Shown here: positions 1-1,224 of the stretch, in pieces
Layout: each line of letters opens with the position of its first letter
Numbering within the stretch: position 1 is the stretch's first letter
NCBI RefSeq assembly: GCF_003334355.1
Contig: NZ_QOWP01000093.1
Strand: one strand, 5' to 3'
DNA from: Escherichia coli
GTDB taxonomy: Bacteria; Pseudomonadota; Gammaproteobacteria; Enterobacterales; Enterobacteriaceae
DNA: 1,224 nt
Notes under the pieces: model-generated
What the model was told of the DNA's origin: nothing
Database searches by the model: none
The model's input: the letters and a program-made list of their open reading frames with translations, nothing else
Made by a program: the position numbers and the translations under genes

Positions 1-1214
1 GAACTGTCTTGGTCTGCCGGGTTATAACGGTCCCAGTTGAACTTCACCCGCACGCGACCATGTTCGTCGCAGAAGATTTCCTCGCCTGCCGGTCCTGTCA
101 CGACAGCGCTCTGCGGGCCGTCGACCAGCGGTTTCAGCAACGGCTGTGGTCGCCATGTTCTGTCTGCCGGGATCACCGCAAAATGGTTCTCCAGCGCCGT
201 CCCCGCTCCCTGCCGTCCTGGCACCGCCTGTGGCTGTTCGCCGTGCAGTTCACTTGCCACCACCTGCCATTCCCGGTTCAGGTTCGCCTGCGGATGCCCC
301 GTCAGCACAATTCGCCGTCCCGGCCATATCTCCAGCGAGCGGCTCATTCCCCGCGCGGTTTCTGCGTTGTTTCGCCAGCCGTCCATCTGCCAGCGGGCAA
401 AGTTCTGCCCGTGGGCGCTCTTGAAACGTCCGGGGTAGTCATACACTTCATACTGCGTGCGCTGGTAGTCCTGGTGCTGGCCTTCCTGTTCAAAACGTCC
501 GGCCCAGCCGGGGCGTTTAAAGGTGTAGTCTTTGGTCACCACGGAAGAAGGGCGGATTTGTGCGCTGTAGCGGAACTGGCTGATGCAGAGGGTGCTCACC
601 TCGGTACGGGTGTTCGGGTTCCATGGGATTTCAAAAGATTCGGGCAGATGGCGGACTGTGTCGCACAGCACCAGGCTCTGGTCGGTACTTTTGTAAGCAT
701 GCTCCTCATAAAAGAAGATGCCTTCCTCCGCCGCCATCCGGCACAGGAAATCGTAATCAGTCTCACCGTACTGGACACAAAACTCACGGGAAGGATGCGG
801 CTCGCTGAACAGCGGACTCCATTCGGTCACCCCGTTTTCCTGCAACATCGTGCCGAGGATGCTTTTGATGTCCTCGTTCTGGAAGATACGGAAGGTCTGG
901 CGCAGACCGGCACGCCACAGCGGCGGGTGCACCTTCATGCTGTACAGCATCTGGTTTTTGTCGTTCTCCCCCAGTTCAAACCAGGTCACCACGCCTTTCA
1001 CCCGGCGCTGTACTTCATCGCCCTGCCATATCGTCAGGTAGGCCATTTTGTCCAGCACCTGCGCAAATTCAAGGGAGAGAAACTGCTGGCTGACCAGGGA
1101 GAGATCGAGGGAAAAGAGCGAAGAGAGTGACTGGTTCAGATGAAAGGAAACCACCGCAAAAGCATCCGGCGGCAGGCCGTCCACTTCCAGTGTGAAACGT
1201 AATCCGGTTGACAT
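1..1214 (-). CDS. vgrG: Type VI secretion system spike protein VgrG, N-terminal part (gp27-like hub domain plus start of gp5-like OB-fold). 5' end complete, 3' end truncated by the window edge; 404 complete codons visible.
   Basis: Hand translation of the reverse complement from the ATG at 1214-1212 gives an uninterrupted frame to position 3 (no stop in 404 codons). N-terminus: [145 protein letters not shown]... Visible C-terminus: ...[39 protein letters not shown]. This matches the VgrG / Rhs-element Vgr family (Phage_GPD-like N-terminal domain followed by a Phage_base_V-like OB-fold) from memory; no database search was run. The six-frame track does not list this ORF, presumably because it has no in-window stop. 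Confidence 0.93.
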
Positions 1215-1219
1215 AGCAA

Positions 1220-1224
1220 CCTCC
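1220..1224 (-). promoter_or_regulatory. Shine-Dalgarno ribosome-binding site for vgrG
   Basis: The reverse complement of 1212-1224 reads GGAGG-TTGCT-ATG: a perfect GGAGG core 5 nt upstream of the start codon. This supports 1214 as the true start. Confidence 0.7.

Follow-up and report, generated by a model that had tools for sequence, protein, structure and literature searches.

The window, by which we mean the whole 1,224-bp stretch of Escherichia coli DNA analyzed here, holds the N-terminal part of vgrG (tssI), the first two-thirds of an ordinary E. coli gene. The joint reading that we prefer, and to which we assign a probability of about 0.9, is that the minus strand carries the ribosome-binding site and the first 404 of ∼633 codons of the vgrG of E. 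coli (or Shigella), and that the elevated GC content is a property of the vgrG/Rhs module.

Identity and Layout of the Gene

On its minus strand the window opens with a ribosome-binding site and a start codon, and no stop codon or frameshift was seen on this strand within 3-1214. The features are as follows.

1220..1224, minus strand: Shine-Dalgarno sequence GGAGG, 5 nt 5' of the ATG (reverse complement of 1212-1224, GGAGGTTGCTATG)
1212..1214, minus strand: ATG start codon of vgrG, read from the sequence and in agreement with annotated VgrG CDS starts
3..1214, minus strand: vgrG (tssI) codons 1-404, translated without a stop, the gene being cut at the window start
234..1130, minus strand: Phage_GPD domain (PF05954), gp27-like baseplate hub, residues 29-327 (E 6.1e-75, model positions 3-303 of 305)
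3..65, minus strand: start of the gp5-like OB fold, residues 384-404 (its first 21), placed by the position of Phage_base_V in the full-length protein of E. coli OW1E2

The start codon is the one used in E. coli OW1E2, where the VgrG coding sequence ends at locus position 16214, equivalent to window position 1214. In the nearest genomes the full-length gene has 633 codons, of which codons 405-633 lie outside the window. Membership of the VgrG/TssI family is indicated by scores above the curated NCBIfam cut-offs, with the 404-residue product reaching 404.6 bits against TIGR03361 (VI_Rhs_Vgr; cut-off 186.35, E 5.6e-121) and 290.5 bits against TIGR01646 (vgr_GE; cut-off 121.8), and by a Phage_GPD hub that is present at near the full model length. 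The 633-residue OW1E2 protein, whose gene is 99.8% identical in nucleotide sequence, has Phage_GPD at 29-327, Phage_base_V at 384-450 and Gp5_trimer_C at 467-560. The window reaches 21 residues into the OB domain, and the remainder of that domain and the β-helix are seen in the full-length OW1E2 gene; the window is thus the hub and the start of the OB fold, without the needle.

The nearest solved structures, although distant in sequence, are the VgrG spikes 7Q5P and 4MTK/4UHV, the latter pair being VgrG1 of Pseudomonas aeruginosa (E ∼1e-50, with residues 13-403 aligned), and this alignment supports a shared arrangement in the window product, a gp27-like hub followed by an OB fold. The E. coli structures 6SJL (VgrG1 of EAEC) and 2P5Z (an N-terminal fragment of c3393) align at E 1e-14 and belong to other vgrG clades, and we found no solved structure of the clade represented here.

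A scan of both strands against Rfam gave no match at E values up to 1. The repeat search returned a single imperfect inverted pair of 16 nt (376-391 and 643-658, 81% complementary and 251 nt apart) that lies inside the coding sequence and is consistent with chance.

Taxonomic Assignment

The first-pass annotation had likened the N-terminal sequence to VgrG proteins of Escherichia and Shigella, and this likeness is borne out by megablast of the window against 5426 complete E. coli genomes, in which the best matches, chromosomal vgrG genes of many strains, are 99.8% identical over 1224 of 1224 bases and carry the annotation type VI secretion system tip protein VgrG. Matches were found in 3594 of these genomes at 7991 places, with a median of two and up to four per genome, and no copy among the 5426 genomes is 100% identical to the window. 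The source strain therefore lies outside this set and could be a Shigella or an E. coli derived from a metagenome. The three best matches examined differ from it at two or three positions, one of them non-synonymous: at window position 895, the second position of codon 107, the window has G and encodes Thr-107, whereas all three matches have T and encode Asn-107.

In a peptide-seeded scan in which each bacterial species was represented by a single genome (the GTDB representatives), the nearest species other than E. coli are Pseudocitrobacter faecalis (91% amino acid and 88% nucleotide identity) and Escherichia albertii (87% amino acid identity over a partial copy), followed by Citrobacter youngae at 81% and Yokenella and Atlantibacter at 80%. 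No species representative other than E. coli exceeds 91% amino acid identity. Below this level comes a tier of ∼60% in other Enterobacteriaceae, then Serratia and Rahnella at ∼45-55%, and finally Xenorhabdus and Vibrionaceae at ∼40%. The proposed enterobacterial origin therefore stands, as the closest species are all Enterobacteriaceae and no better match outside the family was observed.

That none of the complete E. coli genomes matches the window exactly, and that nine matches fall on plasmid-labeled records, might suggest a different source, either some other species of Enterobacteriaceae or a plasmid or phage bearing a recently transferred copy. We regard this as very improbable given that the best match among the representatives of other species stands at 88% nucleotide and 91% amino acid identity, compared with the 99.8% seen in E. 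coli. Moreover, the nine matches, drawn from 72,556 plasmid records of all bacteria, all come from Escherichia (9/9), and several are records of 0.28-4.8 Mb, of which the megabase-sized ones are taken to be pieces of chromosome. On sequence comparison, an origin in E. coli or Shigella, which are not separable in the collections searched, is supported.

Genomic Context of Near-identical Copies

A near-identical copy of the gene heads an island of ∼10-12 kb between cusS and nfrB in E. coli strains OW1E2, 2013C-4974, WP2-S18-ESBL-07 and O157:H7 AC-5. In the island, vgrG (633 aa) is followed by a DcrB/DUF1795 protein (153-158 aa; PF08786, E 1.9e-27), an Rhs protein of 1500-1600 aa, small ORFs and an ISAs1 transposase. 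The OW1E2 Rhs protein contains a PAAR segment, YD repeats and an Rhs-associated core, and the C-terminal toxin varies by strain, being annotated as either a restriction-endonuclease fold or a zincin-like metallopeptidase; a small ORF 3' of the PAAR-rhs gene is immunity-like. Genomes with near-identical copies thus carry a cargo and adaptor association typical of type VI secretion systems (T6SS), with DcrB/DUF1795 and PAAR-Rhs genes 3' of vgrG. In OW1E2 an IS5 copy (ISKpn26 family) lies between cusS and a 745-bp AT-rich spacer located 5' of vgrG.

In E. coli K-12 MG1655 this site is empty, with 149 bp between nfrB and cusS (locus 8180-8328), and comparison with the carriers therefore identifies the island as an insertion/deletion polymorphism. 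Presence and absence at a conserved site are accompanied by a composition and codon usage that are distinct from the backbone, moderately so. The island corresponds to vgrG1-rhsF of EHEC EDL933, whose vgrG islands have been described (PMC7216683), and the vgrG at its head (vgrG1 beside rhsF, Z0705, in EDL933; WP_000103231.1/WP_208789956.1) is 99.8% identical to the whole window and shares its start codon and ribosome-binding site. Compared with this cusS-nfrB VgrG, the window differs by 2-3 bases, has Thr-107 for Asn and is without codons 405-633.

The second vgrG locus is the RhsE element, between ansP/yncH and ydcC. Strain MLI114 has a full-length, frameshifted RhsE-locus vgrG that shows 92% identity across the length of the window. 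The arrangement differs from that at the cusS locus: immediately after the MLI114 gene comes one for an RhsE-type core protein, and no DUF1795 gene is annotated in the interval. At the RhsE locus of BL21 (8001-8339) the vgr remnant retains only codons 1-113, matches window 876-1224 at 99.4% identity (99-100% over approximately the first 300 nt) and abuts an N-terminally truncated rhsE; the K-12-type RhsE vgr (vgrE of K-12 and BL21) is a pseudogene, a deletion remnant. The linkage to Rhs elements that had been proposed from the sequence alone is hence found at both loci, since the neighboring genes include an Rhs toxin in each case.

The cusS-locus and RhsE-locus copies have in common a block that spans −452 to +1532, counted from the ATG, and diverge after about codon 510. 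Identity within the block is mosaic, ranging from 83 to 98% per 100-nt bin, and this pattern suggests recombination between the loci, as judged from the aligned copies; the divergence after codon ∼510 suggests a conserved hub joined to a cargo-specific C terminus. Because the block is multi-copy, at two or more loci, the fragment alone is not assignable to a locus or to a toxin cargo.

In the draft genomes of other species the N-terminal region of vgrG was also found on isolated contigs of 840-1950 bp (n = 7 loci). These are presumably repeats left unplaced by short-read assemblers, and the 1,224-bp window may be of the same kind. The more specific idea, that the window ends are the ends of the inter-paralogue repeat, as in a collapsed-repeat contig, was ruled out, for the common block extends well past both of them. 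Multiple copies also occur in Serratia microhaemolytica ZS-11, with at least 10 vgrG loci, and in Trabulsiella odontotermitis, with four copies of equal identity and E-value to the query, each no more than 8 kb from a contig end.

Base Composition and Codon Usage

A GC content above the E. coli average had been proposed from hand counts of two 60-nt lines at ∼57% and 65%; the exact values for those lines are 56.7% and 65.0%, and the proposal proves correct for the window as a whole, with an exact GC content of 58.50% for 1-1224 and 58.48% for 1-1214. As the host reference we used four dispersed 50-kb samples (200 kb) of E. coli OW1E2, the holder of a 99.8% identical copy, with a pooled GC content of 51.7%. 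Windows of 1224 bp from this sample have a mean of 51.7% (sd 4.2%) and a maximum of 60.3%, and 1.4% of them reach 58.5%, which places the vgrG window at about the 98.6th percentile. The GC content is uneven along the window, at ∼60-67% in 1-400 and ∼54-58% in 600-1224, toward the start of the gene.

In the minus-strand vgrG frame GC1 is 62.4%, GC2 42.1% and GC3 71.0%, compared with 59.9 ± 5.4, 41.2 ± 4.1 and 58.9 ± 6.9 in 102 long ORFs of the OW1E2 sample, giving z scores of 0.46, 0.23 and 1.75, respectively. A GC3 of 71% is reached in the 102-ORF sample by two IS5 copies only. The gene-level GC z score of the window is 1.2, and in codon-usage distance it is equaled or exceeded by 10.8% of backbone genes. 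The compositional deviation is therefore moderate, in the GC-rich tail and not extreme, and the GC excess resides at third codon positions, that is, at synonymous sites, and not in amino acid content. The codons enriched in the window relative to the backbone are CGG (0.24 versus 0.09), GGA (0.30 versus 0.10), CTC (0.21 versus 0.11) and ATA (0.17 versus 0.06), as well as CGA, and CGT, GGT, GTT and ATT are depleted in the same comparison.

In other genera, many vgrG homologues lie a few points above their own flanks in GC content, which would be expected if GC-richness were simply a by-product of the amino acid composition or structure of VgrG, or of translational selection, and hence uninformative on origin. 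The per-position and codon-preference analysis led us to reject these causes, and we give the by-product explanation very little credence. GC1 and GC2 fall within 0.5 sd of backbone genes, and GC3 alone deviates. The codons gained (CGG, GGA, CGA, ATA and CTC) are uncommon in the backbone sample; highly expressed E. coli genes favor CGT and GGT, among other codons, and the depletion of these two therefore means that the codon shift goes against translational optimization. In addition, other vgrG clades with the same fold (those of Lelliottia, Citrobacter werkmanii and C. sedlakii) have a GC content of 46-50% and a GC3 of 42-54%, in contrast to the relatives with at least 80% amino acid identity in C. 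youngae, Yokenella and Atlantibacter, at 59-61% GC and 72-76% GC3 with flanks at ∼51%. The deviation confined to GC3, the gain of uncommon codons and the difference between high-GC relatives and low-GC clades together argue that the GC signal belongs to the lineage of the module and does not stem from protein composition or expression.

The plus strand has no open frame comparable to vgrG except for an ORF at 9-1130 (373 codons), antisense to vgrG and in register with it. An antisense frame of this length arose in only 0.6% of synonymous-codon shuffles. We nevertheless rejected it as a gene, and the chance that it is a real overlapping one seems to us negligible: its 373-aa product matches no NCBIfam family, and the frame is broken in close relatives, staying open for 179 codons in the RhsE-locus copy, for 167 in Atlantibacter and for 250 in Pseudocitrobacter. 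The open frame is explained by the near absence from vgrG of the sense codons TTA, CTA and TCA (1, 0 and 2 occurrences), whose complements are stop codons, and is probably a side effect of GC3-rich codon usage.

Origin of the GC Excess

The island in OW1E2 is itself a compositional mosaic. Its vgrG has 56.8% GC (GC3 68.8%), and the values are 54.3% for the DUF1795 gene and 59.6% for the Rhs ORF, whose core lies at 60-63%; GC drops to ∼29-32% in the tip of Rhs and downstream (locus 7744-9255), and the 745-bp spacer 5' of vgrG (locus 16215-16959) has 34%, compared with 52.5% in the flanking backbone. The classic pattern of Rhs elements is a G+C-rich core with an A+T-rich tip, often in association with vgr and hcp (PMC2935791). 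The OW1E2 locus displays a GC-rich core, an AT-rich extension and downstream region, and vgr upstream, of which the window itself comprises vgr only. The published pattern concerns the Rhs core and tip; the GC-richness of vgr specifically rests on the computation presented here.

On the simplest account of the GC excess, the module would have evolved in a more GC-rich background and been acquired from it, without having fully ameliorated since. The empty site in K-12, the bordering ISAs1 element, the mosaic composition and the high-GC relatives in other genera make the data consistent with horizontal acquisition, as had been suggested at the outset, and do not amount to proof of it. Two observations weigh against an acquired module. 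The closest relative, the P. faecalis copy (locus 8001-9212), has a GC content of 55.9%, the same as the 56% of its upstream flank, which sets it apart from the copies in C. youngae, Yokenella and Atlantibacter; this may be a clue to the clade's compositional background. The deviation in OW1E2 terms is also modest, in view of the share of backbone genes that match or surpass the window in codon distance and of the gene-level z score reported above.

The high GC3 could instead have been made in place, by GC-biased gene conversion or frequent recombination among the multiple vgrG and Rhs copies within and between E. coli genomes. The segment is indeed multi-copy, at the 7991 places noted above, and the common block of the cusS and RhsE loci has a mosaic identity, with the BL21 remnant near-identical to the window over its first ∼300 nt, a pattern that gene conversion would produce. 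The excess is also restricted to synonymous positions. We consider it unlikely, however, because the same GC3 is found in relatives from three other genera, the adjoining Rhs cores are equally GC-rich while lying outside the common vgrG block, and the presence/absence polymorphism of the island and the IS element at its edge fit import.

Proposed Function and Significance

By analogy with characterized systems, a trimer of VgrG would form the spike that tips the Hcp tube in the T6SS, with the gp27-like hub encoded by the window docking on the tube. The C-terminal β-helix, which lies outside the window, would seat the PAAR domain of the neighboring Rhs toxin, and the DUF1795 (Eag-type) chaperone would keep the hydrophobic Rhs N terminus soluble before mounting. 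The T6SS machinery that fires this spike would be encoded elsewhere in the genome. What is shown here is the identity of the gene, its domains and composition, the genomic contexts and the polymorphism between island and empty site; the spike function, the Rhs loading, the T6SS firing and a foreign source of the GC bias are inferred. The closest parallel in another genus is in Photorhabdus laumondii, which has the same gene order as the island (VgrG, DUF1795 chaperone, PAAR-Rhs toxin) and in which such an arrangement has been demonstrated by experiment for the VgrG-EagR-Rhs1 complex, with the VgrG β-helix and the prePAAR-PAAR region of Rhs both required (PMC8636562).

The feature is already known, being a common E. 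coli gene within the described composite composition of Rhs and vgr. The first description of vgr is reportedly that of Wang, Zhao and Hill in 1998 (J Bacteriol). The compositional signal is carried by GC3 and not by amino acid content, and the appropriate annotation is that of a partial vgrG (tssI) gene. The gene is well characterized, and about two-thirds of the complete E. coli genomes carry it. Apart from correct annotation, the finding is of small consequence.
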